Origin: Proteromonas lacertae
Lineage: Eukaryota
Reading direction: 5' to 3'
Length of the DNA: 64,000 bases
NCBI GenBank assembly: GCA_002245135.1
Contig: NGBS01000021.1
Location: 1-64,000, forward strand
Shown here: piece after piece, positions 8,292 through 64,000 of the stretch
Position numbering within the stretch: the first letter of the stretch is position 1
Layout of the letters: each line of letters opens with the position of its first letter
Notes under the pieces: generated by a model
Databases searched by the model: none
What the model saw: only the letters and a program-made list of their open reading frames with translations
What the model was told of the DNA's origin: nothing
Position numbers and translations under genes: made by a program

Positions 8292-8327
8292 ATTAAGCAA
8301 AGAAATAATAGATTAAAAAGAAATTAA

Positions 8328-24444: not shown

Positions 24445-24549
24445 GATATTTTGAAATGATAAGTTAGTCACAGTGAATGTCGAGCTTTTTGTGAAAGTTT
24501 TTACATAAATCCAAAACCAACAACTCTATAACTAAAGAATTACAATATT

Positions 24550-35957: not shown

Positions 35958-36110
35958 TTAATTAATAATCAAATCTATTATATTTTATTATTTACTGTCT
36001 GGTTTGCATTTTGTTGTATTATTTTGCTGAATAACTATTTAGTTAGTGAGAAAATCAAAGATCCTTTTAATTCAAAAATTAATTCGTTTTATTGATTTTT
36101 TAATTTTGAA

Positions 36111-39044
36111 ATGAAACATTCATTCAACCGCAACTCAATAAATTCTGAACCACTCAGTCCTGCTTTTATGGATAGAGTAAAAAAGGAATTATTTGAGTTT
36201 TGCCAATCGACTGAAAAGCGTATTATAAGAAAAAGTTCATTATTTAGATAAAGAATACCCTGGTTTAAATGGAAGTGAGAGAAAATTCATCCACAATCAG
36301 TGCGCGCTTTTAGGATTGCAATCTCAGAGTCATGGAGGAAGTATAGAAGTATATAATGCTATAACTAGAAAATAATCGTGTATTGGTCATATCTAGATAT
36401 GATTATGAAATTGTTTGCCCAGAATATCAACCAAAACTACTCTCAAATTACATTGAAGCTAATCCAGTTACTACTGAGGAACAAAACTTTGATATTAAAT
36501 CTCAAATGTATAAGATAATACAATGATCTTATAATAATAGATTAATCTCAGATACAGTTAAAGATGTTTATCAAATAGGTAGAGATCCTGATTTGTGGTA
36601 CAACCGTTATCAGAATAGACAAAAGTGGCTTAAGACACATCCAGAACCGCCTAAGAATTTACCTATCATACCATGGACTGAAACAATTATTAATGGGATT
36701 AAAGCCAATCGTGTATTTATACTATCAGGTGAAACAGGATGTGGTAAAAGCACACAAGTACCTCAAATGATATTAAACGATAAAGAATTAGGTCCAGAAG
36801 CATGTATAATCTGTTGTCAACCTCGAAGATTATGTGCAGTTGGTTTAGCTGAGAGAGTAGCTGAAGAACGAGGTGAGAAAGTCGGTGAAACAGTATCTTA
36901 TTCAATTCGATTTGATACAAATCTGAGTAGATCAACTCAATTGGAATATGTAACAACTGGTTTATTATTAAGAAGATTGAATAATGATGGTGAATTGAAA
37001 GGTATAAGTCATTTAATAATTGATGAAGCTCATGAGAGAGATCAATTTTTAGATTTCTTATTAGTATATGTGAAAGACAAATTATTAAAACTAAATCCAA
37101 ATATTCATGTAATAATCATGAGTGCTACATTCCAAGTATGTTTAATGTATTTATTTTATAGATTGAAAAGTTTATGAATTACTTTGATGCACCTCATTTA
37201 TCATTAGAAGGAAGGATGTTTAATGTAGAGAATATATATTTAGATGATATATTAATGAAAAGAGAAAATTTCAGAGTTGCACCACAAACTAGTGAGTATA
37301 ATATATATATAATATATAATATATATATATATTAGACCAAAATTCACATGTTCAATTTGTCATCAAGTATTTTATGGGTATAAGTTATTTGGACAACATA
37401 TTGTAATATGTTATGAAAAACCAACTGAAGATTTGAACTTAGAATTATACAAAAGAATAGCCCACAAAGAACCAAATAATAATGGTGATGATGACAATAA
37501 TAACAAGTTAAAAACTGATAATAGTGTAATAAGACAAATTATGGAAAAGTATTATAAGATGCACCAAGATTTAGAAGTTGATTTCTTTCTTATTATTGAT
37601 ATTATTAAAGACATTGTATTACAAAGTCGAGTTGTACAAGATGCAATATTGATATTCTTACCAGGATGGAAGGAGATTTATACTTTATCAATGTATTATA
37701 TTAATATAATTATTATTATTGTATAGGTTATTGAAGAAAGAGAATCTATTAAAAGGTTGTGATATTCATATGTTACACAGTGGTATTTCATTACCAGAAC
37801 AAAAAACCGTATTTCAAAGAAGTTATTCAAAAAGAAAGATCATTTTATCAACAAATATTGCAGAAACATCAATCACTATTGATGAAGTAGCTTATGTAAT
37901 AGATAGTGGATTAGTAAAAGTGAATGGTTTTAATGCTAATTTAGGTATTGGTACATTATCATTGGAATACATTTCTAAAGCAAATGCAATACAAAGACAA
38001 GGAAGAGCAGGAAGAACTAAACCAGGAAAATGTTACCATTTATATACAGAACAACAGTTTAATTCATTTAATGAATATCCAACACCAGAAATTCAAAGAA
38101 TATCATTAGAAGAAGTGATTTTACAAGTTAGATCGTTAGATAGAAATTGTACATTTAAAGTGGAAGATTTTCTATCTAAATTAATGGAACCTCCTAATAT
38201 AGATAATATTAATCATGGATTAGAGAAATTGATATGTCTTGGTGCTTTAAGAGAAGAAGATGAGAAGTTAACAAAACTTGGAGAATATTTGAGTGATATT
38301 CCAATTAATCCTACTTATGGTAAATTATTAATTGTATATATATATATATATTCTATTATATGAATAGTTGGGAATATTGTTCCATTGTTTTGATGCTATT
38401 TTACATTTAGTATGTATTATGTCTAATGGTGATATATTTATGATTCCTAAAACTAGTCAACAAAAAGATAAAATCAAAAATTTCAAGAGAAATATGACAA
38501 ACGGAATTCCAAATGATTATCTGTTGTTGTTAAATGTATACAATTATTGTGAAACTTTATCACCTAATGAAAGATATAGATGGTGTTTATCCAATGAAAT
38601 ATTGCCAGAAAAGATTGAATACGCTAGAGTATAGTTTTATATTATTAATACAATAGCAATTATCACAAAAGTATAGAAATTATTTATACAGTAAGAAGTT
38701 ATTTACTGAAGTTGCTTTTATTAATGAATATTCTAAAGATATCAATTATGTAACTGCCATTCTTTGTATAGGATTATATCCACAAGTTGCTGTTGAAATG
38801 AATAAAAAGAGTGGTTATTTATTCAATAACAAAGTCAAAGGTGTATGTCATCCTGCTAGTGTAATTGGTTTGAATAAAAGTAATATTTCATATAATAAAA
38901 ACTGCAATATGTTGATATTTAATGAAGTTGAATTAAGCACTGATAATATAGTGAACTTTAAAATGAACACTTATATTAATCCTGTTATATTGTTATTATT
39001 ATGTTTTAGTCTTGATGATAATGAAAGTATTTATAATTTTTATT

Positions 39045-40226: not shown

Positions 40227-40629
40227 ACAGATTATAACTATAAATTGGAATTACTGTTGTGTTGGTTTTAATTATAATAATCATAATTTACATTTTATTA
40301 TTTTAATGAAAACTACAAAATAAAAAAGAAATAATAATAATAATAATATATGATGCTGGGTTGAATAATAAAGGGACAGGGCAGTGGCGGGACAAGGGCA
40401 TGTCCCGGGCAAAAATTGAAAGGGGCGTCCTTTATACTATCTAAAAATAGAAAAGGGTACAATTTGCCCTTTTCAATTATTTTATTTGAATTTTTATATT
40501 TTGTGCGATTTTAGGGATATTAAAAGCTATAGAAATATTTATTCTTTTCATAATTATGTATTATTATCTTATAACAATAACAAACAATAATATTTCATTA
40601 TAATAATAGCCTTAAAAGTAAGGGCTTTG

Positions 40630-40762
40630 AGATCCTTCATCACTAAAACCTTCATCACTAGAACTTTCATTTTCATCACTAGAACTTTTATCTTCATCAC
40701 TAGAATTTTCATCACTTAAACCTTCATCGCTAGAACTACCAGAACTTTCATCTTCATCACCA
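40630..40762 (-). repeat. Degenerate 15-18 nt tandem repeats encoding an acidic SSDE tail of the transposase
   Basis: Repeated ttcatcactagaact/ttcatcact units. Confidence 0.7.
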
Positions 40763-42324
40763 GAACATTGATAATCTAAAGTGTCATATACTATATTGTT
40801 ATCAATTTCATTCAGCACATCTAAATTATATTCTTCTTCACTAATATCATTATCATCTTCATTTCTATCTTTTTCTTTGTTTTTTTCTTTTAATAAATCA
40901 TATTTTATTCTTAAAATATTATTTATAGTATTAAGCTGTAATTTATTTCTAATATGATTATGAACTATTCCCTCAATACTAAATGAACGTTCAATAAATG
41001 AGCTTGTGACAGGAATAGTTGAAAGAATATCATATAGCTTCTTAACATTTGGGTAAAATACTCCATACATATTGTACCATATATTAGTTGATATCTTTTT
41101 CGAAAATATATCTGAAGGGCACTTTTTGCAGTATGGTTTTCTTCTTTCAAAATGATATATCTCATTTAATGCTTTCTGATTTAAAATAGGGCTGAATTTA
41201 GATAATATATATCTTTTTATATTATCCTTCTCCATGTCTGAAAATTTATGTTTACTGTTTATGTCTAAAAATTCATATAGAGCTAAAATGCTGTAGTTTG
41301 CATGTCTAGTCTCTTTTTTTATAATGTCTTTAATAAGTTCTTTTTCACTTGATGACCTTTTCATTAACTTTCTTTTAATTTTGGTCAATATTCTGAAACC
41401 ATCATTTAATGTAGATGAATCTTTGCATAATAAGTGTATATTTGTGGAAATATATTTTGCAATCTTGTAGCATTCTTTAATTTCTGGTATATCTTCTTCC
41501 TTTAATAATTTTATCTGTAATAAAATTTCTTTATTGAGTAATATTTTTCTAAATACATCGCTATAGCTTGACCATCTCGTATCACATCCCTTGCGTATTT
41601 GGATATTTTTTTGTATAATTGAATATATAATTTCTCTAATCTTTTGATTATTATTTAACTTATGAATAATGTCATTACACATGACTATCACTTTTTTGTA
41701 TTTCTCTATTTCGAATACTTTTTTACTGATTAAGTTTAGGATGTGTGCTAAACATCCAAACTTTACTACAGGTCTATTTATTTTTTTCTCTAAAATACTA
41801 CTTATCTTTTTCATGGTGTAGTTGTTATCACTACTCACAGCAACAATGTTTTTAATATCTAGTTTATACTTCACTAATGTTTGAATTATTAATTCCACTA
41901 TATTTTCTGATGTTTCTCGTTTATGTAAATAAATGGATTCCAAAAACGAAATATCACTGCTTTTCTTTATTGCCAAATTAATAACGTTTTCATTGGTTAC
42001 TGATTTCCAAGCGTCCACAATTATACATATTTTACTGTTATCTACAATTTCCTTTACTATTCTTTCTGCTTCTTCGTTCATTGATGCTTTTATTTTGTTT
42101 ATTGTTATTGACTTTGTAGTTGGATTTAATGCATATATTAGATTTTTAAAGGATTTAGATTGTATGGTTCTGAAAGCTAAGTTATTTTCTATAAGATATT
42201 TGGTCACCATTAAGTTTATTGCACGTTCATCATATCTCAATTCTGTAAGTTTTGATTGGATTAGCTTTTCACTACATCTAATTTAATAAATATAATAAAT
42301 ATATTTATACTTTTTGTAATGACG

Positions 42325-45300
42325 TGTCGCGCGCGATAAAGAAATTTGCGCGATAAAGGATTTATAAACTTTCCTTTGAAACTAATACTATATTTACAAT
42401 ATATACTACTTATACTTTACATACCATATGTTATATATATGATTTATGTTAAATGAGGCGATATCAGACAATAGAGCAGCATATATCATATTATAACATA
42501 TATCAAAACTCCTTATATTAACTATGTATATTATGAAATATTATGATATAAATCAATTTTGATGTTGAGAAAATTTAAAAAATAAGATCAAATTCCTTTT
42601 ATTTTTTACCCCCATATTTTTGTTCAAAAATTAAAATTTCTTTTTATTAAGAAATATTTTAGTACTTCTAAATATATGTGTAGATTAATATTGCTGCAAC
42701 ATACTTATTAGGTAAATAAAAAAGATGAGTTATAAATAGTTGTAAGTATCATTTTTACAATTCTGTAATAATATCATTAGAATGGTTCATTTATGAATTT
42801 TCTATTGTAATAATATCTTGTTATTCTTATTTTCCTATTCAAATGTTTAATCAAATAATAGAGGAAGTAAAAAGAAAATTTCAAATTTGCTATTTTCTTA
42901 TATATTTATTATTTTCTCTATTATTTATATTACAAATAAACTTTTGTTTATGATTATGAATGTTTATAAAGTCGTTTTTTATTGTTAATTATTGTAATTT
43001 AATATATTAATTAGATATTATATGTTATTATTTTATTTTTAAACTGTAATAACAATATTGTAAAACAAAAGTGATTATGAATGAGGTAATTATTATATCG
43101 TTACTGAGATTTAAAAACGATGTAAGGTATTCTTTTGGTAATTCTTGTAAAACTTAGCTTTTTCTTCCACAGTCAATTTACTCATAGCAGAGAATAAATC
43201 TTCTATAAAATAATTAATATTAAAACTCTCTATATTCTGTATTTCATCTATCCTTAGGTTTTTCAGTCTACATCCCAAATAAAAGAGGGTGTAATACCCA
43301 CAATTTACTTTATCACGATTACTTTGTTTCACATTAGTTTCCATAATTTGGTAACTTAATTCCACGTTACTCTCAAAAAATCTGTATATTCTATAGATAA
43401 TATTATCTCTTGCATCATTATAATCCCCTCTATAAATGTTTAAGCTGTCATAGATATAATATTTAATATATTTATTGCTGTTATATTTCACTTCAAATAA
43501 CGACCAATGTTGATAATCTTTGTCGCATACTGGGAAAAAATATATACCATCGTTCTTTATTTTACTTAATAAACGTAATTGTTCATCACTTTTATATATA
43601 TTACCTGGATCTATTACATTATCATTACACTGATTAATGAAGTGTATATAAAACACTAGATCTTCGGATTTTAATCTCTCTTTTAATAATAGATGATTAA
43701 CTATAATATTAAATTGTCTTAAGAAACAGTTCTTTTGCTTACCTTTTAGTGATATTGTATTATAATTGTATGGATTTATAATTAATCTAACAAAATTTAA
43801 TGTATTTTCTTCATTGCGTGAATAGAATAGAGAATCACCATCATCATCATCATGTATATTGACGTAAAAACAGGACAACTTCAGTCTGTATGATTTATAT
43901 TCTAATAGTTTAGAGATATATTCTCTTAGCAAATCGCTCATTAGAATAACATCTAACTCCAATACTTCAATATTGTTGTAATCAGAATTCATAATCATAA
44001 ATGTCACAGTAGCAGCAATATCTGTGGCTTCTGGAAAATTGCTCCTAACATTTATTATATTTATTTCATATTTACTTAGATTTGATATATATGAGGATAT
44101 ATATTTAAGATCTGTATTATAGTCATATGTATTAATTGAATCATATATTTTAATCATCCCTTTATCCTTTTCTATCATAATTAAATAGCATCGATGTGAT
44201 TTAATTAATATGCTCATACTTTTATTATTATATAATAACATATTGTTACTTAATAGATTAATGTCATTAAAATCATATAATTGAAGTATATACCATATCT
44301 GATATATATTTAACTCCTTTTTTCCTATTTTATCTCTTACTTTTATCACATTTTCTAATTGTTCTTCAGTTAAAGTATCTTTACCATCATAGTCAGAAGT
44401 AATTTTTCCAAATATGCTATAAACTGCATTTTTAGAAGGATGTCTAATGATATCTGATAGAATTTTTTGGTATGTATCAGTTTTTCTTTTCTTTTTCTGA
44501 GGATTGACCTATTTAATAAAATAATAATAATACTAATTGCATATCCATTTTTCTTTTGAGTTTTTCTTGAAGATCAGTTGATATAGGAATGACTTCCACT
44601 GCCGATGAATTAGTCAATCTTATTTCGTTATCTTTGTTACTATGTTAATTATTAATATACATATCTATACACTGCATATAATGAATCATTATTTTTGTTC
44701 TTTTTGATTATTCTGAACTCATTTTTATCTTTTTGATTTTTTATTTTCTTAGTAAAAACAATTGCATTGCCATGCTGGGGGTTTGATACTTTTTCACTCA
44801 ACTTTTTAATCGAATTCATTACCATCTTACTATTTTTTTTCTCTATTCTAATATTAACAGATTGTTTGATATTATCTATTACTGACTTATTCCTATTAAT
44901 ATCTTTATTTATTTTTTCATCATTTATTTCTTCATTGTCAATGTTATAACCATAATCTACATTATTATTACTTATATTGTAAAATAATTTTGGGTTTTCT
45001 TTTTGTAGTTCTTCTACATCCATAAAAAAAAGACTTCTTGGCTTGCAATGTGTTGTTGAAGAAATCGAAGTATTCATATCTTCAATTATATTTTCTATAA
45101 ATTCTGTCCATTCATGACCCTCATTTTCAGATAAGTAACCATCTACTAAGCGTTCTATAACTTGATTATAACGTTCAACCTTACCATTCGTTTGAGGATG
45201 ATAAGGCGAGCTTGTTATCTTTTTGGTATGATAATCTGCCATTAATTCATTCAATATATTGTTGACAAACTCAGGTCCGTTATCAGATTGAATAATTGAT

Positions 45301-46931
45301 GGGGCGCCAAAAATTCGTATATAACTTTTAATATTTTCTGCTGTTTCTTTGGCACTTTTTGTCTTTTGACAATAAATCATAATAAAACTACTATAATGAT
45401 CAATAATAGATAAAAGAAATTTTTCATTTGAATGATATTTGCTCATATTTATTAAATCAATCAGTATCCTTTCTCTTGGTGCATGAGATATGATTGGTTG
45501 CATTGGATTACTACGACTAATCTTCTTAATTTTGTGACAAACAGCGCATGCATTTAAATAGATTCTAATCATGTCTCTTGTTATACCAAAATATTTTGCA
45601 TCACAATTAATATATTGCATCATGAAACGCTCTCTTCTATGCCCATGAGATCTATGAATATCATCCAATATATCAAAACTTTCTTCCAATTTCACTACCA
45701 ACTTATCTTCGAAGTAGAGTTTATTATTCTCGACTTTATACTTTTTAAGTTTGTAATAATTAATGTTATTCAAATATTTGTCATACTTTTTCTGATCAAA
45801 TGTCCATGAGTTTGTACCACTTAAGCATAATTTATCTATTTCTTCGTAATAGTGTTTGACATGATCAGCTCTAAGCAATGTATCAAGATCTTCATCAGAT
45901 GACCTAATTATAAATATAGAATAATAAGTAAATAAAAGATATATAGGCTAATAAAGATTAGAACAATTTTGTAGATTTCAATCACATTTTCTTGCATAAC
46001 CTAAATAATGAGTAAATTGTTATTTTACCAATAAAATTACTCAAATTGTCTGATAATATTCTATCTTCACATGGTTTTGTTTCTGAATCTCTCATGTTCA
46101 TATAATAACATAAATCTAGGAATGATAATTGCAACTATCAGTTTGATGGATTATATGGTGTAGTTTTCTTCATTTAACGTGAATAGACTAACGCCTTAAA
46201 CAGCATAACCCCACTAGAGTAATTACAGAATATATTGCCATATTTGATGTAAATTCCTTTCAGTTATACAAATATATCAAATAACAAATATATATATATA
46301 TATATATATAGACTTACATTTTAAAAGATATAAATTTGAAAAGTTTGATATATGCTTGACATCATATTTATATTTTTCTTTAATGCTTAATTACATAATA
46401 GACTAAAATATATTATATCTCTTTATTATAGTATATTCAATTTTTCTATATTTTTTCCCTGGTAATATACGCTCATTGCGCTTAGATTTCAAGATACTTG
46501 ATATTTACGCTTGATATAAGACCTAAACACAAAACAATCACATCTACATTTTAATAATATTCTTATATTACAATAATCTAAACATATACTTTTAAAATTA
46601 CAAAAAAAGAAAAGAGCTTGAGAAAAAATTTGAAAATTGAAAAAATAATTCAAAGAGTATAATTCTTAATTCCTGTATAACTGATACATTTTTTCTATGC
46701 ATCATCTAATGAAATTAATATTATATTTAATATATAAGTCAATTTTACTATTTAATAATAGTGTTTTCTTTTCATATTATGACAGTTTTTATATGTCATA
46801 AAAAGTAGTTTATATAGCAAACTAACAATATATAAACGTAAAACAAAGGACATATATTACGATTATAATGCAACTTTTTCATAAAAGTTTATAACTCCTT
46901 TATCGCGCAGATTTCTTTATCGCGCGCGACA
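42325..46931 (-). mobile_element. Ginger/TDD-like integrase DNA transposon nested in hAT; ~48-bp TIRs starting TGT, 5-bp TSD TGACG
   Basis: TGTCGCGCGCGATAAAGAAATTTGCGCGATAAAGGATTTATAAACTTT at 42325 and its near-perfect inverse ending at 46931. TGACG at 42320-42324 and 46932-46936. Confidence 0.93.
43111..45903 (-). CDS. Gypsy-like integrase/transposase fused via two introns to tandem Ulp1 (C48)-like protease domains; 5' exon unresolved
   Basis: HHCC (HRSHGH...CAVC) and DDE (ILIDL, IQSDNG, KVERYN). Introns 44640-44670 and 44509-44533 join ORFs 44652-45878 and 43111-44349 in frame. Protease motifs QHWSL, YDSL, KQ...NCG. Confidence 0.85.
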
Positions 46932-47742
46932 TGACGTTTCAAATTAGTGCAATGAGCAATAATCATTGCCTTGCACCTTCTGCATTGAATTCTGTTGTAT
47001 TTTTCAAGGGGTTTCTTTAACACCACATCTTCATTAAAGTATCTATACACAGCATCTCTCGTTTTACCCATATACAATTGAAATGCAAAATGATAGCTCG
47101 AAATTCTCAAACCATTTTCTAAATATTCAAATAATTGCTTGAAATACATTAAGTAGTATGCAAAATATACTAAATAGTAATTTTGAAATAGTTTTTCTAT
47201 TAGTTTATGAAATATATTATGTTATTATCATAACAAGTACTATTGATTATCAATTAACTGAAAATACCCATTCTATAGCTATACTTCTTAATTATCTATA
47301 TGATATATGTGTAATATACAAAATTATTTATTATATAAATTTCATTTATGTTCAGTGACGTCAATCACCTTGAAATGTACATAATGTATATATATGCATA
47401 TCAGAATATGATATACAGTATGTATATTCTATATAATTAGTATATATGCATAAACATATGATATTATATAATCATAAGAAAAGTAGATGACTATTATGCT
47501 ATAATACACAATAATATATCCTTTTTAACATATGTTAGTATATCTAGATGATAATATGGAAAAGTTATAACAAAAAATCAGAAAAAATATACTACAGCAT
47601 AACACATGGTAATATTACTATGCCCGAGCAGTAAGGGGCAGGCTTCTTTTCAGCTGAAAAAAAAGGGGCAAAAATAGGGCAAAATTCGAAAAGGACGCCC
47701 TTTATCGAACCCAGATATGATGATAATAATAGTAATAATAAA

Positions 47743-50700
47743 CTAATTACTAGTGGGTGGAGATATTGTTGGAGTTGCAGCTGATGTAGCAGTTAGCGTT
47801 GTTCCTCCTACTGTTGATATCACTTTATATGATTCATTAAATGATACTCTATTTGATTCTTTACGAGGAGTAACGGAATTGTTATATGCTGATCCTAACA
47901 CTCCAGAATCAACATTTATATTTCTCGTACTACCTATCCTCGTGCTTCCTGTTCTTAGAGACTCTCTTGAAGATTTTCTAGACTGTCTACCATGTGTTGA
48001 TGAATTAGCGTTAGCAAGATTATAAAACATATATGGAAATGAGATAGTACACATTGCTAGAGGTTCTTCTATCAATACATTTGGTTTTACACTGAATCTA
48101 CCTCTATTAGCTTGTTGTTTAGCTAAACTTCTTGTTTTCTTTGAATTAGAAGCACTTGCAGATGATGAACCAGCTGTTGTTGTCATGGCATATAAAAATA
48201 TTGATGAAATCTTTGAAGCAAACTGTAATAACAAAACAGCTATCACTCCCAACTCAACTCCCAATCCTCTCATCATCATTAAAGTATCTGGTTGTTTCGA
48301 CATCATAAGATTTAATGGAATTTCTAATATACCTAATACCAACATAACAGAAATCATTGATGCTAATGTCATTGATTCATTGAATTCTGAGGTGGCTTTT
48401 CTTGTTTTCCATGCTAATCTTGCACCATATAAAAACATCACTATTACTGCACCAATTTCTACAAATGTAAATATATCATTTTCTGTACATTCTCTTCTAT
48501 AAACATCCTCTAAATAACTAGAATATTCTACACTGAATTCTTCTGTATAAACAGAAGGATCTACTACCCACCATATAGTAAGATAGACAATTTGAACTAT
48601 TTCAATTAAAAGAATTATCTTTATCAACATCATATTAGAAATTTTAACTCTTTGCAAATCTTTGTTGTTGAATAATTTGTGAATTCTCCATGCTTTACAC
48701 AACAAAATACCAAATAACAAATCAATTGATAATGCTAATAACCATACTCGACAGAAACATACTCCCCAATTTGGAACTAATGTAAAAATAAATCCAGATA
48801 TACTTAACATGATTAATGAAAATAATGTATAATATAAAAATAAAGGTGAAGATGTTCTAATAAATTTCATATGTTTAAAATTAAACACTAATCCAGCAGA
48901 GGCAAGACAAGCAATAATAATAATCACCATCAACACTATTATAAGTATTTGTAATGGTTTACTATATTCAAACACAGATCTACTCTTACCCATCATACAA
49001 TCATCAGATGATAGATATGTTAAAGTTGGATCTATTGATAATTGTTGTTTATTCTTTGGATAAGCTTGAACTAATGAACCAGATGTATATCGGAATATAT
49101 AAATTGATTTTGTGGCATGGTTATTATAATTTACTGCTAATTTACCACTTGGACTATCAAAAGAAACATACTTCAAACTCAGTTTTATATAATCACCTGT
49201 TGGCCATTGACCTTCACCAGTTGTATGTTGTTCTTTTGAAGCATATTCTATTGCAGATTTCCATAAATACAATGAAGAATAACTTGTTTCTAATAATTCT
49301 GTTAATTGAAATGAATTCTGGAATTGAGCTGCTACTGAATATGAAAAAGATTTAGCTGAGGTTGTTGAAACTGAATCTGCATAATTTGAAATAATATAAG
49401 TTCCAGATAACATTCTTTTAGCTTTGGCACTATAATCAGCTGGATCATAATTAGTTTGAATTAAGGTTAGAGAACTTACATCAATATCTAAGTCAACACC
49501 AGTTTCTAAGAATTTGTTACTCTCTTTACCTGCATATAACACCACTGTAGCTCTTGTGCTTTCTGTTAATCTCAAACTATCAATATCAGATATTAATCTA
49601 CTATAACTATTTGTATTATAAGCAGAACTTAAGAAAGAACCAATGAATTTCATTCCTTGACTTGGTAAATATCTTGCTATTGCATCAACTATTATTTTTG
49701 TTGAATTTTCTTCATTTCCTACTACATATAGTTCAGATATTCCCATTTCTTTTACATAAGATACTAATGGAATTACATTCTGAGTTATTGTTGATCCTGT
49801 ACTTATTACTTTATTATTACAAATAGCACCATTATCTTTTCCTATATAATAGAATATCACATCAACACCAGAAGCAGCATCTAAATATCTTGCCACTTCA
49901 TCTCGACATTTTGAAGTCATACAACCAAATATTGCTTTAGCTTCTGTTTCTGTTGATATTGATCTGGTTGTGGTATAGATTTTGTTAAATGTTAAAAAGT
50001 AATGATCACCTACTATTTGTCTTCCATTTACACCATTTTGTTCATTTATTAGACCAATAGCCATATCTTCAATCAATAAATTATATTGCTCAGTTTTACC
50101 ACCTACATCTATTTCATGAATAAATGCAATATGAATTGGATCAATAAAATAATCATTTGAATTATAATTCTTCCAATCACAAATATGACCAATATATTCT
50201 GAATTCCATTGATCATATATACTTGCATCAAAATAATCAGAAGGTTTCCAATCTATAAAGATTTTATTCTCTTTGGTAATATAACCACTATAAATATTTC
50301 GTTTGAATATATGACTTGGTGATAATTCGATTGTTCCTGATGGAACATCTACATAGTATTCATACAGTATCTTTATCTCATTTACATCAATACTATTTGA
50401 TGAAGCAATCATATTCTTCCAATATAATAATAAAGCAAATGCACTTTCATATTGTGTTCTTCCTTTCATCTGTTCACCAATATTGATATGCAATTCTTGC
50501 AAAAATGTTCCTGCTAATGTTGGAATATCTACACTTGTTAATAATGGATCACTTAATGATTCAAAATAACTTCCTATTACTCTATGACCTGATAAATATT
50601 CTGAACTCAATTCATTGAAAATGTTTTCATCAAATAATGTACTAATTATTGTATATTTCGGATATTTTATTCCTAAATTATAACAATCTTTAAAGAATTG

Positions 50701-53700
50701 AACATAATGCTCTTTGTTTTCTAATGTAACTATTATATAACCACCATTTCCAGCTGCTCCTTGTAATATTTGTCTTAGTTGTGATTCAGTATTTTCAACT
50801 TTTATACTGTATTCTAGATTACCCATTAATAATATATTTAAATAACCTAAATTTGATACTATAAAATCATTTAATGCAACAGTAAAATTAGACAGTGAAT
50901 GGACTAATAATACGGATGTTACATCTTGAAGAACTCTTCTTACTGTTGCTACTGCGAATTTGACTTGGATGTAATTCACTTGCTATTACATTCTGTGGAC
51001 ATTTCTGACTATAAACATGACCACAGAAAAAGAATAACTTCTTTGAACCTGACATTTCATCAACAATTGTGTCAAAATCATCTGCATCAAATCCACCAAA
51101 TATATAACTAATACTTGCATCACTCAATATTTTAGTGATTAATTTATGATAATTACTTCTATCAGAAGCTAAATCGTATGCTTTATAATATAATTGATAT
51201 TTATTCAGTAATGGCTCATTATTATTTATATATGTTATACCAGATATTACAGCATCAAATATTGGTCTTTCAACACTTCGATGAATGCCAGAAAACGATG
51301 TAATTATTCCAATTAAATAGGTTTCTACTTCACCACCATCTCCTATTAAGGGATTGTCAAAATCACATATCTTATATTTTGTATAATCATTTATCATCTC
51401 ATATGCACTTGGAAAATGAGCATATTTTGTTGAATACATCAATCTACTTACTTTCTTATCATCAATCCAAGATAACATCATTGTTTTACCCATATATTGA
51501 TTATTAGAAAATTGAACTTCACCTTCAGGTGATTCTAATGTTGTTTGTCTTAGTTGTTTTCTTAATGGACCTATTTCAGTTGAATTGATTGTATTTATTG
51601 CTTTGGCCCATAATTTTACTGAAGAATATAAAGATGAAACTATATCATTTAGATAAACTGTCTTTTTATCTATTCTATCCAACATATCATTTTTGAACTG
51701 TTCATTTGCTGGTGAATCATTTTCTAATCTGTAAGAATGAATTATTTCATATCCACCATAATCTGATAATAAAAATGTAGCAGTTGGATCAGACACAACA
51801 ATATGGAAGAATGGTTCTCCAAATTCATATTTATCAATTTCTTTCTTTATTGATGTATAATCTTTTAATGCTCCTTTAAAAATCATGCAGATCCTTTCTC
51901 CTACTTTGTTTTTCAAATCTACATATTCTTTCATATATTTAGCTACTAATTCAAAAGTTAATGCATCATCTACTTTTATATATAATCTATTCAAATAATT
52001 ACTTATATATTGTGCATTATTAGCATCATCTGTATTCATAAAGGCTATTAAAAACCTTGTATAAAATCGATTTGATAAAACATCTAATACTTCATCATAT
52101 AAACTAATATGATGACTAGCAACAAATGTATTTGGTCTACATTTATTAATGTCATATTTATAAATATAGAAAACTAGAATGTTATTCTTTACAAGTTCAC
52201 TTTCAACTTTATCCAAACATTGTCTTCTTACAGAAAAGAATATGGCTAATGGTTTAGATTGAGCAAATTCCAATAATTTTTCTGCACATATATCTGGGTT
52301 TGAAAGTGTATCATAGATTTGAGTCTTTAATTGCATTCCTTTTACTCCTCCTGCATTATTTATTTCATCAATTGCCATTTTAAATGCATCTACTTCACCT
52401 AAGTTATATTCTTGCAATTCACCAGTTAAACATGATTCAAGAACTACTTTTGCAGCATCAATCTTATAATAATTATCATTTTTACCTTTTGGATCAAATG
52501 AACACATATAACCAAATGTTGAATCTATATTCCAACTCCAAGGCATTGGAGATTCTTTATTTACTTTGGAAAAGATTGTTGTTATTTTTTCACCATTTTC
52601 ATCAAATTTTGCTACTACAAATGGTAAAGATACAAAATGACTTTCAGTAAATGAAATATCACCATTACCATCAGTCACTTTACATCTTTTATCTATTAAT
52701 TGAACTTTTATTGCTTCTGCTTCATCTGATTCTAATTGTTCTACAGCTTTCATCCACAATTTTATTGCAGCATATGATGAATCAGCAAATGCAGTTGGAG
52801 TGACACTATAAGTGTATTGATACACCAATGCATTAAATGTCTTAGCTGTTTCTGTATCAACATCATGGAAATAATGGGATAAAAGATAAACATCATGTTT
52901 TGAAGAGGATTTATAGGATAAGTATTTCTCTTCATCTGATACAAAATCAACAAATAAATATTTACTTCGATCTATTCGGAGAGTTTCCATATTATTCAAG
53001 AATAACTGTAGATTATTTTCATCAAATAATATTATTGCTATTATTCCACCATTTTCTATTTGTTGCACAGCAGATGATAATCTATCAAGTGTTGGTGGCA
53101 ATGAATCAGATATTATTAAATCTTCTTCAACTGTTGTAAACATACCACTTCCTTCATCTCTCAGTATTTTTGATACAATTGGAGATTCTACATCATCACC
53201 TGTTACTATTAATAAACTCTTTTCTACATCTATTGTAATTAGATATTCCAACAATCTTGAAACATATTGATTTGGCAATAAACCTAAATAGAATGTATCA
53301 TTTCGACATTCTTGACCTATAAATTTCTCTGGATAAAAGTAAAGAAGATTAGTATAATCATTCATTACATTTTGCACATGTTCTTTACAATCTGTATTAG
53401 AACAACCTACTATAACTTTCACATCATACTCATCTATTGCCTTTATTATTTCTTTTTCAACATCTGCTCTTGATGAATCTAAATTTATTATCACTGGCAA
53501 TGCAATATGTTCATTTAATGGACCTAAATCAATTCTCTCATGCAATGCTGTTAATGCACCATATAATCCTTCTCTATCTCTCTCTGTATCTAAACCTGAA
53601 ATTGAATATAATAATGCAACATAATATGGCTGATATGAACTATAATAGTCATTCTGAATATCACACCACAGTAAATTACTTTTTGAATATAAGGATATAA

Positions 53701-56700
53701 ACGGTAAATTAATAATCAATTGTTGTGACATATAATCTAATTCTTTTTCACCTTCAGACATTTTTACACCTTTCCATATCAACACTTTACTCTTTAAGTT
53801 ATTGTCTGACTCAAATCTTAATCTTCCAAGTATTGTATCTACATCTGTTGAATAAGCATATTTCTTAAAAGCATCTTTATCTGTTGAACCAGCTTTTGTT
53901 AATATAGCTGATAAATATTCAATACCTATTTCACCTCTTATAGAATTTTGATCAATTGAAGTTATAAAAGAAAATTTTGAAAAGAATTCTGAATCAAATT
54001 TTGCTTTTAATGGTCTTCCTATTTCATCATTTATATCAACAGTATTAATATAATAATGACCATTAAATGCATCACCTATTTCTTTAGCAGCTGCTCCATC
54101 AAGATTCATATTTATAGTAACATATTTTGGAGGTAGTAATTTGTATTTTGCCAAACTAGTGATAAACAAAGATGCTGATGGACCTTCTAGAAATGATACT
54201 AACAAAGTATAACCAGTTAATTTGTATTGCATGAAATTAACTATAGCATCCATATCATTATTTTCTAATGGTAAGGCTAATTCTATATCAAAAGATATTT
54301 GATAGTTCGATAATTCATCCTTTATATGACTAGCTAATGATTGTGAAAATGTTCTTTTAGAATATAACAATACCAAATTCTTCTGTCTATGAGCAATAAT
54401 CCAATGTAATAAAACATAATATGAAGTAGTTGGAAGACCACAATAGAAACAGGTTTTACAACATGTCTTTCCTTCATAATCAATTGGAATAAATATACTT
54501 CCATCAATTTCTTCAGTAACTTCTTGTAGAATTTCTCTAGCATTCTTCTCAAAACCTCCAAAGAAATAATAGGTATTATATTCTTTAACATATTTCATTA
54601 TTGTATTTCTTGTTTTAGTATTATCATCTGTAGCTGTAAATGCAATTACATTTATATATTTATTCAATATTCCACCATTTTCTAAATTCAATTTATCTGC
54701 TGTTAATTTTATAGCTGCAAAATAGGGAATTGAATCTTGGAAATAAACATCTCTATATGGCAATACTATTCCTATATTGAATGGTTCTTTGGTGTATTTC
54801 TCACCCAATCCATCTCTTATATTACATAAATAGATAGTTTCTGGATTCCAATCTGTGTAATATGGTTCTGGTTGATATGATTTGGATATTGTATCATATG
54901 GAATGATATAACCATTTGGCGATATTTTACCTATATATAATGGTAAATTCAAATGATTATTGGAATAAAACTTAAGTGTTCCTAATTCTGTTTCAGTTTC
55001 TACTTCATATAATTGTTTCTTTATTGCATCAGTAGTGAATTCTGGACTATTTCTTGCTGCATTTATTAATATCTTCAATGTATCATAAACAACAATATCA
55101 GCAAAATCAGGGAATGTTCCATTTCCAGATGCAAAAGAATAAGAAGTTAAGAATTTGTTTATTGATTCAGATCCATCATCTACAAATGGAGTAACAACAA
55201 AATGACCAGCAGCATGTTCATCAAATTTTAAATGATTCTCATGAAGCATATAAACTGTATATTTCTTTACACATTCTTCATTACTAGGATATAATCTACA
55301 GATTTTATTATAGAATATTTCAAAGAATTTTTCTGCATTTGTTTGATAGAATAAAGCAATTACTAATGCACCTGTTGAGGAAGTATGATATAAATCACTT
55401 ATTTTTAAACTCAAATCTTTATCAAAGTTTTTATCATCTATTGCATATTCATTATATGATAATTCTAATCCTTCTAACATTGATTTCATTAAATGAACTC
55501 TATTTTTATATCTTGTTACATTTGTATAGATTATACTAATTGGTAATCTATTGTTGAGACTTGAGATATATAACACAAATGGTAATATTAATTGATTTTG
55601 TGTTGGATAAGAATAATAAACAGATGTTTGACATTGATTTCCATTGTTATAACCAACAGACATAAATAATGACTTTTGAGGTAAAGCAGGAATGATCGCA
55701 TCTTTAACTTCATGATCACAGTTTGATATTATATACTGAATATCTCTTTGTTGTAATCTAATCAACAAAGCAGCTGCATCATCTTGATTTGCAGGACAAT
55801 CATGTAATTCATAGTTTATAAATCTTCCTTGAACTCCACCATCATGATTAAATGATGCTATTAATTCTATTTGAGCTAAATAAGTATAATGATATGCTAT
55901 GTTATAATCACTTCCAGTAATTGGAAATATTATTGCAATACCCATTATTGTATCTTCTATTTCTATTCTGGGTGGATCAATTGAAAAATCACTTGTTATA
56001 TATTTATTATCATGAATCAAGTAAAGATAAGGATTTGGGTTAATTGGAGATAAAATTCGAATGAATGTCTTAATCACTCTCTTTTCAAAATACTGTAAAT
56101 AGGATGGTAAAGACATATAATTGTTTTTAGACACTTTTACTTCACCTTGTGGACTTTTTATCACATTATTATAGAAATAGGTTCTTAAGGTAAAACTACT
56201 TAAATCTTCAGGATTAGTTTCTAAGGCTGCTTTGATTGCTATTAATGCATCATATAAACCTAATTGAAAATCAGCTGTCAAAGATTTATTATCTCCTTTA
56301 TATTTCTGAAGTATACTTAAAAATAACAGATTATCTTCATTTTCTACATCTGTTGAATAAATTGAAGTAAAATAAACATCATCTAAATAATCCTCATCTT
56401 CAGCAGAATAAAGAACTTCTTCAGTATAATCAGATAGGATTATTGTATCTGCCATTGTATTACCTGTATCATTCTTATAATCTCTATATGCTTTAACAAA
56501 TTCATATGAATCTCCTTTTATACAAGTTATTATTGTTACTGTTACATGATTTTCATCTGCATATTTGATTATTTCTTCAGCAACTGCTGTGAAATTATGA
56601 TTGTCTTTCTGTAAAGCAATTTCATGATTCACTTCATTAAAAGCACCTGTATATTCTTGAAAGTAAGTAAAGATGTTTTTACTATCTTTATCATCAGTAT

Positions 56701-59440
56701 AATACACAATTATCTGTTTAAATCCAAGTGCAAAACTAACATGCACAATTGGTGGAACATTTTGATTTGGAATACTATTTGCTTGGATTATATTCTGATA
56801 AGAAACTTCACCACCACTTGGAGTTAGACTAAACAATAATTTGTCTTGCTTTATTAATATATCAGATAAGGCATCTCTTTCTTCTGGAGTTTTTGTACCA
56901 CAATAGAATAAGACACTTGAATCATTCTCATAACTCTTTACTTGTTGTTGTAATTCTTCTATTGAATTATAATGAAAGTATAATGGAATGATTTCTCTTC
57001 CATTTATTCCTCCATCTTGATTGACAATATCAAATATTACATTCAAATGATCCATTATTACATTATTAATATATGTATGTTTATCATAAATCAAACCAAT
57101 TTTGTATTGTGGAAGATCTACTATTTGAACTACACCATTAGTATAAGCACATTTTACTGTTTTATTATGAATAGTAAATACTCTATCATTTGATATTTGA
57201 TTCAATATATGATCAGAATCAAATCTTTCTTTCAGTTGAAATATCCCTAATTTTCCTTGAGCATAACCACTATAATATATTTCATATTGATCATATGCAG
57301 GATTTTGAACTGCTTGATGATAAATATATTCTTTGTAATATGATGGTAAATAGGAATATGCAGATTGAATTGATTGTTGTAATAATGAAAAGACATTAAT
57401 TATCAAACCAAATTCTGGACACATTGGTATTTCTCTTCCTAATAAAGTCAAAAAATAATCTCTATATGGATCAACTAATTCAGATGACATGTTGTTACTT
57501 GAATGAGCTAAATAATAATAACCTTCTACATTGTAAGTAAATGTTTCATCATAGTCATTTTGTGATACAAATGATTCATCAAGATTATAAGCAATTACAC
57601 TGAAATTGTTGTTTATATTAATGTTATTCTCATTAAATGCTTTGAATAAATTGTTGAAATACCATTCTTCTGCTACAACAAATACACCAACTTTATCACC
57701 ACTTTCTACTGTCATATTTGATACAGTTCTTGTCACATTCAAAGCAGAATATTCATCATTATCTATCATATATGATATTACTATCATCTTTTCATCATAT
57801 CCTCTTGATACTAATTCATTCACCAATAATTCAACACTCTTTTCACCATATTCAGTTCTTGTTCCAACTACAATCATTCTGTTAAATTCATTTGTCTTTT
57901 GAACAAAATCAGCTGTCATTTTAGCATACATACTTGTCAAAAAATTGCCAAATATTACATTATCTTCACAATAATCACCTGCTGTTTTACCAATATAAAA
58001 CAATTGAATGTCATATGGTCTTAATGCACCAGCTAAATCTTTCATTTTATCAGGTTCAGCAAACATAAATAATGTGTGTAAATTTGATTCATTATAGTAA
58101 CCTAATATTTTACTTGTCATTGCTTCAACACCTGTATCTGAATCAATTGGAATTCCAGTTATTTTCATACCCTAATAAATCATCCTATTACATAGAATAG
58201 AAATAATAAAATATACTTCTAATCTGCTTATCATTTTCATGAACAAATATTCTTATTAATTTCATTTTAAAGTCTTTCATTCTAATCACAAATCCAATTG
58301 GCAAATAAGAAAGAGTTTCATTTCCATCTTCTTGAGAAGTTAGGAAATTACATCCTTCAGTTTCTAATTTTCCATAATACTGACTTGGAGTGAAGGATTT
58401 CTTTTCTCTTATTGTATATGCAGCTTTTAAATCACTTCCATCTTTCTTAACAAGATAAAATGGTGTTGATAAATAATGATTAGATAATAAATACATTGTT
58501 CCTCCCAAATATTCAATTGGTTTGTCATATAATAAAGATAGAAATGTGTGAATTTCAGTTGCAGGATATTTGGTTGATTGTTCAAATATTTTTGTTAAAA
58601 TACCAATCAAAACGACTTCATCAAATGAGGATGGATCTTTATCTAACCTATAATCAGTTATGATGTTATTTGGATCAGCTTCACTTCCTGTAAAACCAGA
58701 AACATATAAATTCTGTAAGTTATCCGCTACATTTAAATCTTTGAAAGATATTCCTCCTGGAAGATATACTATTGGATGCATATCATCATTCTCATTCGCA
58801 CTAATTCTAGCAGATATAATATTATCTATTTTCGCTTTACTAAATGTTGTTAATGTTGCAGTTTTAGGATATTTTGATAATGCATCTAAGTATTTTGCTT
58901 CATCGTATGTAGATTCAGTAGCATTATACACAATGGTAATACCATATAAATGAGCAGAATATTCAAATCTTTCTAGATAGAATTGATCATAAACTCCATC
59001 TCCCATCAATAACACAACTTTACCATTATCAATTATTGATATTATCGAAAATACTAAATAAAATATATTATGAATATCATACAGTCATCAATTACAGGAA
59101 TCACTGATATACCACTGATGAACGATTTTGAACATCTTCCTGTGCTTACAGTATTTAAACACCAAATGATTAACTTATCATTAGATAGCTCATCTGTTTT
59201 CCAATCAAACATCTCTTCAGTACAAACGGCAAAGGCTAAATTCCTATCATCATCTACAATGCTCTTAGTAGCTGTCTTAAAATCATTTTCACCTGAATAT
59301 GAATAGGCATTATAATCAAATCCATCATTGAGTTGTTTGAATTTTTCAAATATTGCAGTGTAATCTGTATCAGATGTAGTCTTCAAATATGCTATTTCAA
59401 GGGAATAGCAAGTTGTTAAAAGTGTTAAAAAGAGCAACAT
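47743..59440 (-). CDS. Giant class C-type (GABA-B-like 7TM) GPCR with about nine tandem periplasmic-binding-protein (UrtA/AmiC-like) domains
   Basis: Signal peptide at 59440; intron 59054-59082; unresolved junction at ~58170-58235; one-base frameshift at ~50960. 7TM at ~48950-48190 with IRTSSPLF, CRVWL, KAWRI and EFNES motifs. Confidence 0.85.
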
Positions 59441-59534: not shown

Positions 59535-62500
59535 TTAATATCGGTATGATCTATTATGACTATCTTCAGATAGTATTTTGTGATTAATTTCTTCTATCAA
59601 TAAATTATTTGTCCACAAATGTTTCAAATACTCATATCTTTTGATATCTAGATGCATCAACGAATTTGCAAGTCTTGGATTAACTTCACCATAATTATCA
59701 ATATAAGGCTTGATCAAACACACAGATGCTTCTTTATACAGTAAAATGATCTAAATAGCAACAAATATATGAAATAGATATACAGAATTCGAATCAAATA
59801 TATATAATATTCCCAATTCGCCATGATAGTTAGTTGTATGTATTGTGCCTTCACCTTTTCCATTTTTGTCTTTACAACAGTTAGACTTAGGACATATCAT
59901 CTTACCACATAATAAACATATACCTTTACCTGTTTTTAAAGGACAAACATCACAATGCTATTTAAAGAAATATATAATAATAATAATTATTATATACTTG
60001 TTTTGAATACTGTTTAATTAATTGATTTCTACTAACTGGCAAATCAAATAATACATTTTGTAATGGAATTCTCAATACTGAACAATCATAATAATTATAA
60101 CTCTTCATTAAATAACTCGTAATTTCAACAGTGGATGGATATAACAATCTATCTAAATAGAAGAATTTAAATAAACCAGTAGCTGTTAAATCTTTAAAAT
60201 CAAACACGTTTGATGTGTTAGATATACATTCCCATAGTAAGTAACATAACTGACTAATATGAAACAAGGAATCATTGAGAATTGTGTTTAACTGATTAAT
60301 AGAAAAATATCGTTGTTCAATTACATTTGTTTCAACTAAATAACATACAAAACTATGAATAACACTACAACAACTCTCTTCTTCTTTATTTCTAATTATT
60401 GTTTCATTACAATAACATCCATTGTCTATTAACCAGAAAAGAACTGACATTTGAAACTTTATTAATAAATTAAAATATGATGTATTACTATTACATTTAA
60501 ATAAATCAAATAGCAATCTACAGAATGGATCAGAGAGTAAATTAGAATCAATTTTCAAGGCAGATTTATAGATATGATACTGTATTGTTAAGAATAAACT
60601 TTGAATAGGCTTGAATGGTTCAAACTTTCTTTTGATCAAAATATAATGTTGCAAATTAAACACTAAGTAAGTGAGTAGATCTTCTGGCTTATCTGCTTTA
60701 ATACTATTAATATATTGCAGTGAAGGTAATGATGGGAATGGATAGCTATATCTCCACAAAGTATAATAATTATTATTATTGTAAGAACTAGATGGAGATG
60801 ATGAAGATGATGATGTTGTTAATGAAAATAGTAATAATTCATTTATATCTGGTTTAACAATATGACCTTCATATGGAGATGGTAGAATAAGATTATAAAA
60901 CATTTTGCAATATAAACTATATAATAATAATATATATATTATATATATATATATACCAATAGTCATATTCATCACCATCTACATCATTAAATGGTGATTC
61001 TATCGAATGCCTCATATAATTCCTTTCCATTGATTTATAACAACTAGAATGACAATAATGACCACAATAATTGAACATTTTTATCTTTGTATTGTAAAGA
61101 GGTGTAATTTGATGAAATGCGAAGAATATAAATGGATTATCGTATGTCTCAGTCTGTTTACATACTAAACAGAGTCTTATATTAGAAAGATCATTTGGAT
61201 TAATATCACCAAATACAGATGATGAGGGGATTAATGCGTCTATTATTGTATTCTCTTCAATATGGTTTAGTTTGGAGAATTTCTGTTGTTTTTTCTTCAT
61301 TTCTGCCATTCTTCTTTCAATCATTGTATTCTTTGTATTTTTCATTTCTTTTTGTTTTGCCTTATTTCTGTTTGCTATTGTTTTTATACTGATTTTTCTA
61401 CTTTGAATATTAGACTGAACATATTTCAATATTTCATTATTAGTTAAATTAATTTGAACGGAATTAATAATTTCAATCATCTCTTGATGTTGCAGTATAA
61501 AATTAAAGAAATTGTTGGAATTAAAATAGATTGCACGATGAATCATACTCAAGCATTCATAAGTAACAGTTTTAGAATTCCTATTCAAATATAATAAATA
61601 CTTCCATAACATTCCATAATATGTATTTGAACCATAAACATTATTCAATATATCAAAATCAGGTGAAGAAAAATTATAACAACTATTTAATGAATCAAAT
61701 GAAAATGGTATATGATCAACTTTAAAATTGAAAATTATATAATTTTCAATTGAAAAGTTGTTCATTTTTGGTTTATAATGACTGTTTATCTTATACAATG
61801 ACGGTTCTTTTATACTTTTATTCTCAACACTACAATTACATTCATTTATTATCCTATAACAAATATTTGAAATTTCTGTTTTAGATTCATTATTCATATG
61901 GAAATAATTCTTTACACTTTCCACAATCTTTCCAAATGACATTGATTGAAAGTACAATTTATTAATAATGAAGGATTTAATTCGATTATAATTATACTCT
62001 TCTATTTTACAGTTATTATTTGGAATATAATTGTTATTGAACAAGATAAATATAAAATATATAAATTGTATAACATAGAAGTCTTTATATTCACATTTAT
62101 TAATTTGAAACATTCCAAATCTCTTCATTATATATGCTAATGGATCATCTAAACCAGTAAGGAAGATCTGAAGATAGTGTATAAATATTTCTATATTGTT
62201 CATTGTGTATAGTGATCTTATTCTCTATAATTAATAAAAAAATGATTAAAAATACATAAAATTTCAAAATATTACCGTTTCTAATCCACATATTTGATCT
62301 GGCTTGAACATCAACAATCTAAATAAATACACATAAAGCATGAATAATATATACAAATAATCTAAGTGGTCCTTCTATCATTAATATTATTTGTTCATTA
62401 TCCATATCACAAATTATATCATTCAACGTAATTATGCCATTAGTTATTCCATATTCAGCTATAATACTATACAAATACTCCAAAGGCCAAAAGAAGCTAG

Positions 62501-64000
62501 CATTTGTTAAATAAGGATGAAAATTCGATTTACATTTGTTAAAATAATGACAATTTGACTGAAGTATATTTCCTTGAATAATTTTTAGTATTTTCATAAT
62601 ATAATCTCTATTCTTTGTCATTGTAAAGAATATAGAAATGGTATTAATAATGGAATATAATGAGAGAAGCGTATAGTTATTATATAAATGATTGATTTTA
62701 TCTAAGTCTTGAAGAATGTGCATTCTTATATATCTCTTTATATTACAGTGATTCTATGGATTAATTATTACATATATAAATAATATACATAACTTTCAAC
62801 TAGTAAATTAAGATATGATACAATATTTTCATCAATTTTAAGTTGATAAAATATTTCAGAAGATTCCAAGTCTGGTTTGAATAAACTAAAATTGGATATA
62901 TATTTCATGAATTCTACATTGATAAACTTTTTGAATAAACTACTTGTCATTCGTAGATTAAGGTTTATAGCATGATTATAAAAGAACTATTAATAAATAA
63001 TAATAATAATAATAAAGTAAATATACTGGAAATATCTTTAAATAATCACAAATACCTTTTTCTCTCTTCAACAATTCTATAGTAACTTCTTCATTTAATA
63101 ATTGGTATAAATTATGTGATTGTAATGTATATAAACCATGATGCATTTTAATTTGACATATTTGATATTGATATAAACTAATTAATACATTAATATATTC
63201 AATTTTGAAGTCTATATCGCTTACTAGTGACAATATATTTTCAATTAATTGACAATCATTGGGGAATAGTCTTTGAGATATTTTTACAAATAAATATAAC
63301 AATGATTTTGATCCAACATTCTTCTTTTCAATCTAATTAATATATTAATAATATATATATATATATATATATATACAAATAATCTACCTACAATATTAGA
63401 AAACTGTTGATTTGTATAAGCTGTATTAAATAACCACTTCAAACATACTTCAAACATTTTATGATGTAAGAATTGAGTTTTATCCATTATTACATAGGAA
63501 GGATAATTAGAAGAAAAAAATCTATCTATTTCTAATTGTTGTATATTTCTATATATAATTTTATTGTTATTTAATAGGGATTGAACTTCATCATTAATAT
63601 CATCGTTTGACTTTGTGATAAATATGTTTTCTATACATTCTCTAGCACTTTCACGAGTTAAAAAATAATTAGATAATATAATTAAATGTGAATGAGGTTT
63701 ATATCTCTGTGAAGCGAACAATTTAACATATTCCATAAAATATGAATGTATAAATGACAGTATTTCTCTACATGTTTCTTCATAAGCACAGATCGTTTTT
63801 TCTTGCATTATATAAGAGATCTCACCACTATAAAATCAATATACAAAAACTATACGAGTGTTCTGGACATGAATGAGATTTGATAATGTATGCATCATCG
63901 CCACAATCACATTTTCCATCTTGATAATGTAAGTAAGTGTAAGAATGGCCTAAATGTTCTTCTTCTCGAAAACACTCCAAACAATACACACTATCATTCA
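59535..64000 (-). CDS. UBR1/2-type N-recognin E3 ubiquitin ligase (5' end beyond window), multi-exon
   Basis: UBR box CLECF...H.GH...CDCGD...CPEH at ~63865-63990; RING CLVC...CGHYCHSSC; C-terminal CLLCG and PYIDNYGE motifs. Confidence 0.85.

Follow-up and report, generated by a model that had tools for sequence, protein, structure and literature searches.

A predicted class C receptor of Proteromonas lacertae with nine tandem UrtA/AmiC-type binding modules

The stretch of DNA analysed here (the window) comprises 64,000 nucleotides of the protist Proteromonas lacertae (contig NGBS01000021.1, positions 1 to 64,000). On its minus strand, from 59440 to 47743, four open reading frames (ORFs; 59054-59440, 58188-59084, 50888-58171 and 47743-50982) cover a region predicted to encode a signal peptide, nine tandem type I periplasmic-binding modules of about 385 amino acids (aa) and one class C seven-transmembrane (7TM) domain. 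An earlier sequence-only reading had proposed a G-protein-coupled receptor (GPCR) of class C with about nine such binding domains, or Venus flytraps. Profile scans bore out a row of nine type I binding-protein modules, which belong to the UrtA/AmiC branch, followed by one class C 7TM domain, and the modules start where that reading had placed them, with first strands near 59400, 58300, 57100, 55940, 54775, 53620, 52460, 51313 and 50130.

Organisation of the receptor locus

Read through, the region encodes a protein of about 3,870 aa that has a single hydrophobic segment at its N-terminus, seven helices after module 9 and a Ser/Thr-rich tail. The ectodomain of 3,456 aa contains 19 N-glycosylation sequons and 39 Cys, and the linkers between modules have a near-constant length of 14-17 residues. 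The coordinates of all features are collected in Table 1.

A Pfam scan was run on 11 pieces of the receptor, with a Peripla_BP_5 cut-off of 27 bits. This hidden Markov model scan, which the sequence-only reading had proposed as a check, gave Peripla_BP_5 scores of 51-110 bits in modules 3, 4, 5, 6, 7 and 9. The two halves of module 8, scanned separately, scored 27.2 and 34.8 bits; joined with X, they reached 100 bits against a UrtA profile, over positions 37-414. No Pfam binding-protein match was found in the pieces of modules 1 and 2. Leave-one-out profiles were then built from modules 3-9, with 200 shuffles each as a control (175-192 of them reported), and all nine modules scored 25-103 bits compared with a shuffle maximum of 3-8 bits. 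Module 1 reached 25.3 bits, its shuffles at most 7.7. The hhalign probability was 96% for module 2, and 7% and 0.3% for two pieces of module 1. Modules 1 and 2 thus appear to be divergent homologues of the others, module 1 weakly so, and module 1, the weakest of the nine, is best called degenerate. The possibility that the modules are not periplasmic-binding-protein type I folds was not borne out for modules 3-9, as these pass Pfam and the models of modules 6 and 9 fit.

Pairwise identity between modules is 8-20%, and a self-blastn comparison of the array returned a single match of 33 nt. These two results rule out a recent tandem duplication, a collapsed repeat or an assembly duplication. With modules so divergent and almost no DNA similarity between them, the array must be of long standing and did not arise during assembly.

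The four ORFs are separated by three junctions. The first is a clean 29-nt intron; in the window, short spliceosomal GTAT...TAG introns of 26-52 nt link neighbouring ORFs at 16 junctions, features of a type and length that the intron scoring favoured. The two other junctions are frame breaks. Break 1 (near 58200) sits in module 2, after its first helix and before its second strand. Read in the simplest typical way, it is an intron of 45 nt (58216-58172) together with one extra base upstream; in another reading, an atypical 73-nt intron joins the frames without any indel. At break 2 (near 50960), a one-base switch at 50959 was the best of 43 positions tried, with 148.6 bits. An intron at this site was rejected among the four alternatives scored, which reached only 119-133 bits.

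Stop codons assembled at 58188-58190 and 50888-50890, and an ATG at 58168, would be compatible with two or three separate genes, encoding secreted tandem binding proteins beside a shorter GPCR. However, each break falls within a module (2 and 8), so that both boundaries would split a folded domain. The large ORF (50888-58171) begins at the second strand of module 2, 16 nt past the previous stop and without a hydrophobic leader, and between the last two ORFs there is an overlap of 95 nt, the downstream frame again lacking a leader. Since each break cuts a domain between ORFs that lie 16 nt apart or overlap, with no leader downstream, the breaks are not sensible gene boundaries, contrary to a risk that the sequence-only reading had raised, and we regard separate genes as very improbable.

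Outside the receptor, five same-sign breaks without a typical intron were found in the window, in a DEAH helicase paralogue and in an Ig/PA14 gene. One of them was checked: two helicase paralogues are identical over 89 aligned bases but for one inserted base. Because same-sign one-base breaks occur in unrelated genes of the window, assembly error (one-base insertions) is the likeliest cause of both receptor breaks, and we hold this with good confidence. A recent pseudogene or broken allele, in which both breaks are real, would agree with the presence of two interruptions beyond repair by typical splicing, and a large receptor family would shed copies. Nevertheless, this appears quite unlikely: breaks of the same kind recur in the helicase paralogue and the Ig/PA14 gene, the receptor contains about 3,870 codons without stops besides the two breaks, and its GC content at third codon positions (0.13-0.15) is like that of neighbouring host genes (0.12-0.21). 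Even in a pseudogene, the nine-module architecture would be that of the intact ancestor. In conclusion, 59440-47743 is likely one gene, read as one protein.

Table 1. Predicted features of the receptor gene, from the N-terminus to the C-terminus
Feature	Coordinates	Strand	Scores and matches
Start codon with a short hydrophobic stretch of about 13 aa that resembles a signal peptide, predicted from sequence alone	59402..59440	-	
Module 1, 357 aa, shortest and most divergent, split by intron 1	58311..59401	-	
Intron 1, phase 1, 29 nt, GTAT...TAG, in-frame link between the first and second ORFs	59054..59082	-	
Module 2, divergent, holds break 1	57113..58310	-	Leave-one-out 33.3 bits; hhalign 96%
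Break 1, AT-rich intron-like stretch from 58216	58172..58260	-	
Module 3, without both conserved Cys	55952..57112	-	Peripla_BP_5 63 bits
Module 4	54788..55951	-	Peripla_BP_5 51 bits
Module 5	53633..54787	-	Peripla_BP_5 72 bits; TIGR03407 78 bits, far under its cut-off
Module 6	52475..53632	-	Peripla_BP_5 110 bits; AlphaFold2 predicted local distance difference test (pLDDT) 84
Module 7	51326..52474	-	Peripla_BP_5 79 bits; ANF_receptor 31 bits
Module 8, holds break 2	50143..51325	-	Halves match Peripla_BP_5 positions 3-118 and 188-358
Break 2, one-base frame shift directly after the PSQ motif, without a typical intron	50950..50965	-	
Module 9, membrane-proximal	48997..50142	-	Peripla_BP_5 90 bits; equivalents of UrtA Ser122 and Tyr141 kept
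Class C 7TM domain, preceded by a short stalk of predicted beta-strands without a cysteine-rich domain	48211..48996	-	7tm_3
Ser/Thr-rich cytoplasmic tail, about 155 aa, TAG stop	47743..48210	-	

Ancestry and pockets of the modules

Sequence, family and fold searches all ranked UrtA and AmiC first as relatives of the modules. UrtA/AmiC profile matches had E values of 1e-50 to 1e-27, and the AlphaFold2 model of module 6 gave template-modelling scores of 0.75-0.77 to UrtA-type structures, and of 0.74-0.77 when AmiC is counted with them. The best structural matches of the module 6 and module 9 models were UrtA/AmiC; the alignments behind the fold models held UrtA rows, which partly builds in this ranking, and single-sequence phmmer gave the same order. 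The UrtA family model TIGR03407 scored 23-83 bits on the modules, under its cut-off of 492.75. Compared with 24 non-redundant bacterial UrtA-type sequences (kept out of 76 whose length was suitable, from 120 loci), the modules are 12-24% identical. An Atlas search with modules 4-7 returned only prokaryotic binding proteins of 371-661 aa, among Atlas clusters of at least 50 and with recognition just under threshold. A tree of the nine modules and 14 of the 24 UrtA sequences, made by a quick method, was saturated (branches of 4.7-10 changes per column), and neither the donor nor the order of duplications can be read from it.

The 'Cys linkers' that the sequence-only reading had seen between modules are not separate joining elements, as they align with UrtA's own C-terminal Cys. 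Modules 1, 2 and 4-8 contain this C-terminal Cys as well as a GQEC-type Cys, and module 3 has neither; in module 9, a Cys lies a few residues off the C-terminal Cys column. That the two are kept or lost together suggests an intra-module disulfide between them.

In Prochlorococcus UrtA, the urea pocket consists of W120, S122, Y141, Q144, E146, Y190 and N246 (PMC10392092, part of the paper). All seven residues are invariant in the 24 bacterial sequences, Y141, Q144 and E146 by construction of the search pattern. The modules keep 0-2 of the seven and at most one of the four hydrogen-bonding ones, the N246 column being alignment-dependent. Amide or urea binding, as implied by the name given earlier to these domains, is thus not supported, and the name fits their ancestry only. 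The pocket comparison that had been suggested alongside it found the urea pocket kept in no module; it did find a residue set that differs in every module. Since no module keeps the urea pocket residues, urea binding is unlikely. Lys replaces Gln144 in modules 2, 6, 7 and 9, and Ser122 is kept by module 9 alone; the Lys, together with Ser122 of module 9, may point to anionic ligands.

The 7TM domain and a model of signalling

The class C 7TM domain of the sequence-only reading was confirmed by a full-length 7tm_3 match (134 bits compared with a cut-off of 33.5, E 1e-38, profile positions 2-251 of 251) and by seven hydrophobic helices after module 9, and a predicted model of module 9 plus the 7TM domain has seven long helices. 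The best PDB match of the 7TM domain was GABA-B2 (E 2.4e-15), and GABA-B2 and B1 were the top 15 of 54 PDB matches. The SSP loop, the K..WR of transmembrane helix 3 (TM3), the Cys of TM3 and of the second extracellular loop (ECL2), and an acidic FNES segment align with GABA-B. Conserved class C residues of the 7TM domain are listed as the TM3 and ECL2 Cys, the TM3 Lys/Arg, an acidic residue in TM6 and the TM7 PK (PMC3727952, in part). Atlas features grouped module 9 plus the 7TM domain with diatom ANF/7tm_3 clusters at 0.96.

Module 9 adjoins TM1, within about 15 residues, and thus places a type I flytrap directly ahead of TM1, a feature of class C ectodomains. No NCD3G nine-cysteine domain was found before TM1 by Pfam on the receptor pieces, which does not place the receptor in the mGluR/CaSR/T1R group. 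Pfam gave no GBR2_CC coiled-coil match in the tail, the tail piece showing 7tm_3 only. ANF_receptor matched module 7 only, and the single ANF_receptor flytrap and coiled coil that define GABA-B orthologues were not found. The model contains strands at residues 383-390, ahead of TM1, and, in ECL2, at 533-540, both in low-confidence parts; this placement resembles that of the GABA-B stalk. GABA-B transmits via a linker/ECL2 beta-stalk, without a cysteine-rich domain (10.1101/2020.04.21.053488, in part).

The model that we favour, with a confidence slightly better than even, is that of a GABA-B-like GPCR of about 3,870 aa with nine anciently duplicated UrtA/AmiC-type flytraps, in which module 9 signals to the G protein. 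A small ligand other than urea would close the membrane-proximal module 9, and this closure would act through the short beta-stalk to move the 7TM core, which in turn would activate a heterotrimeric G protein. By analogy with other class C receptors, the receptor probably works as a dimer. Modules 1-8, each with a different pocket, each presumably stapled by a disulfide and joined by short linkers, would make up a long, drawn-out stalk with a role in gathering or presenting ligands or in touching surfaces, without each switching the 7TM domain directly. The InterPro entries of P. lacertae include 7 G-alpha and 2 G-beta (PMC12129017, Table S5, part of the source).

Several results weigh against this model or against the gene structure on which it is built. 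Module 9 keeps only two of the seven UrtA pocket residues, and the TM7 Pro of GABA-B (FVPK) is a Ser in the receptor (FASK). In the 7TM part of the model, pLDDT lies mostly between 40 and 70, and this part is turned otherwise relative to module 9 than in GABA-B (root-mean-square deviation of about 30 A). The alternatives at break 1 score 35-41 bits and are not separable by profile score, and break 2 could be a real lesion. Lastly, no homologue with the nine-module architecture was found in word-based searches, which were empty at E<=0.001 and are insensitive (GABA-B and UrtA were also missed).

Class C activation is understood as the closing of one flytrap per subunit, which moves the dimer interface; nine flytraps in series raise the question of whether distal modules can signal through the chain. 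If they could, several modules might bind different metabolites and relay their closure down a rigidly packed chain to the 7TM domain, making the receptor a multi-ligand integrator, as the sequence-only reading had suggested. The pocket residue set that differs in every module, the fold signature kept by all nine in spite of divergence to 8-20% identity and the short linkers of near-constant length are in line with this, as is the joint action of tandem flytraps in the sensor kinase BvgS (PMC4352136, in part). However, differing pocket residues fit decay equally well, and modules 1 and 2 are degenerate; we consider integration doubtful. A related idea, to which we give a similarly low probability, is that of modular antennas: a large protist family of class C GPCRs in which a bacterial urea-binding domain was multiplied up to nine times and its copies each re-tuned to another metabolite, their occupancy being summed into one G-protein output, so that a single molecule would sense many ligands.

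Conversely, the modules might be ligand-dead scaffolds, and the protein a receptor for adhesion or mechano-sensing whose long stalk is glycosylated and whose role is like that of adhesion GPCRs. The urea pocket is kept nowhere among the modules, the opening part of the amino-acid-binding flytrap motif has no match in any of them (PMC12965686, in part; alignment inspected by eye), and the length, sequons and Cys content of the ectodomain would suit such a stalk. Against this, the Ser and Tyr of lobe 1 are retained in module 9, whose GC-T-S loop is the most UrtA-like, and the Lys common to four modules at the Gln144 position looks re-tuned rather than random. Ligand-dead scaffolds are therefore, in our view, a rather unlikely explanation, and signalling through module 9 remains the model that we prefer.

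Lineage, neighbouring features and relation to known systems

For P. lacertae, 116 InterPro entries of GPCR family 3 C-terminal, 182 of PBP-like I and 54 of leucine-binding type are tabulated, whereas the eight Blastocystis columns give 0 for GPCR family 3, 0-1 for PBP-like I, 0 for leucine-binding and 0 for G-alpha (PMC12129017, Table S5, part of the source). That paper provides counts only, without architectures, and its main text contains neither 'GPCR' nor 'periplasmic'. The receptor gene is probably one of a large family in the Proteromonas lineage. Judging from the counts, receptors of this kind may have multiplied in a flagellated relative of Blastocystis and disappeared from Blastocystis itself, a pattern that would link them with chemosensory swimming. 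The published GC content of P. lacertae is 27.0%, like that of the window, which is AT-rich (GC 0.21-0.31 per kb). At 27600-28568 (minus strand), the window encodes an EF-hand protein resembling the ciliary microtubule inner protein CFAP129/CMI2B, its C-terminal half matching CFAP129 with E 1.7e-05; from this ciliary gene, the organism is probably flagellated. The AT-richness, the short introns and the ciliary gene suit a Proteromonas-like opalinatan stramenopile better than Blastocystis, whose published columns lack class C 7TM and G-alpha entries. The window does not by itself point to the gut habitat assumed in the sequence-only reading.

Upstream of the receptor, a multi-exon gene (59535-63835, minus strand) lies 94 nt before the receptor ATG and has a PRT6_C-like end, as in UBR-type E3 ligases (E 7.9e-06, just under the Pfam cut-off). 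Directly past the receptor stop, 47640-47735 is GC-richer and contains short inverted motifs, possibly the end of a mobile element. Farther on, two ORFs lie between 92-nt inverted repeats (78% complementary) at 42313-46943, one for an rve integrase (44652-45947, E 3e-12) and one of 465 aa (43111-44508). The latter has no Pfam match and carries an H-W-S / Q-C-G pattern that we take to be protease-like; the whole is likely a DNA transposon. It is followed by a hAT-family transposase (DUF659, Dimer_Tnp_hAT) at 40612-42282 (minus strand).

Four DEAH-box helicase paralogues, with a core identity of 70-78%, occupy 21658-27041 (minus strand) and 33478-38634 (plus strand); two of them are near-identical in DNA over the aligned stretch, which suggests gene conversion. 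The gene at 12508-18737 (minus strand), with three one-base frame breaks, encodes a large surface protein that contains PA14 and Ig-like He_PIG repeats. Finally, an intron-poor cluster at 5178-9207 (minus strand) contains a P-loop ATPase (5971-6777, weak terminase/AAA matches), a 417-aa ORF without matches and several frame breaks; it may represent an element endogenous to the protist, similar to Polintons or virophages.

Relatives of the receptor were also sought by exact look-up and in metagenomes. None of nine window ORFs (0/9) was present in the collection searched by exact look-up, and two metagenome scans of low sensitivity gave 190 and 135 pattern matches, none confirmed as a relative. 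The sequence-only reading had called the architecture apparently undescribed, and no multi-flytrap class C GPCR was found in the full-text literature searched, seen in part and with figures and most subscription journals outside it. It was also right that a single flytrap is the norm for characterised class C receptors. A single prokaryote-like binding domain fused to 7tm_3 has been described in diatoms (PMC3727952) and in fungi (PMC3251606, PMC5168858), including chytrids and anaerobic gut fungi, and the same type of fusion is known from Dictyostelium Grl (PMC10445921) and across eukaryotes (PMC3971589). According to the parts of these papers that were covered, the domains fused are ANF, Bmp, OpuAC, SBP_bac_1, type II substrate-binding proteins or 'Peripla_BP', and the same parts, figures not covered, mention no tandem flytrap array in the diatom, fungal or Dictyostelium class C fusions. 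The main text of a choanoflagellate survey nowhere contains 'tandem', 'periplasmic' or 'Venus' (PMC12716839). The N-termini of non-animal class C fusions reach at most 1,667 aa (PMC3251606) and 1,600 aa (PMC5168858) in the portions covered, compared with about 3,460 aa here; the ectodomain is thus about twice the longest in the surveys cited.

Among the closest known systems, GABA-B GB1/GB2 have, like the receptor, a 7tm_3 domain and connect a type I flytrap to TM1 by a short stalk without a cysteine-rich domain. They differ in having one flytrap, not nine, of the ANF_receptor family and not of Peripla_BP_5 (UrtA/AmiC branch), and the receptor has the TM7 Pro replaced and no coiled-coil match in its tail. 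The flytraps of Bordetella BvgS are of type II. BvgS resembles the receptor in that tandem flytraps lie ahead of a membrane signalling domain (PMC4352136, in part), but it has two modules and a histidine-kinase output. UrtA (8TG1, 8HIC, 7S6E, 7S6F) and AmiC (1PEA) share with the modules the fold, a PNQ-type hinge motif and the Cys pair; identity is 12-24%, and the modules stand in series on a 7TM domain whereas UrtA and AmiC serve an ATP-binding cassette transporter. The array would also supply nine naturally varied pockets on a scaffold that is in use for biosensors. In conclusion, the receptor appears to extend the set of binding domains recruited to 7tm_3 by the UrtA/AmiC branch, and while the fusion of a binding domain to a 7TM domain is already known in single form, no form with nine flytraps was found in the literature searched.

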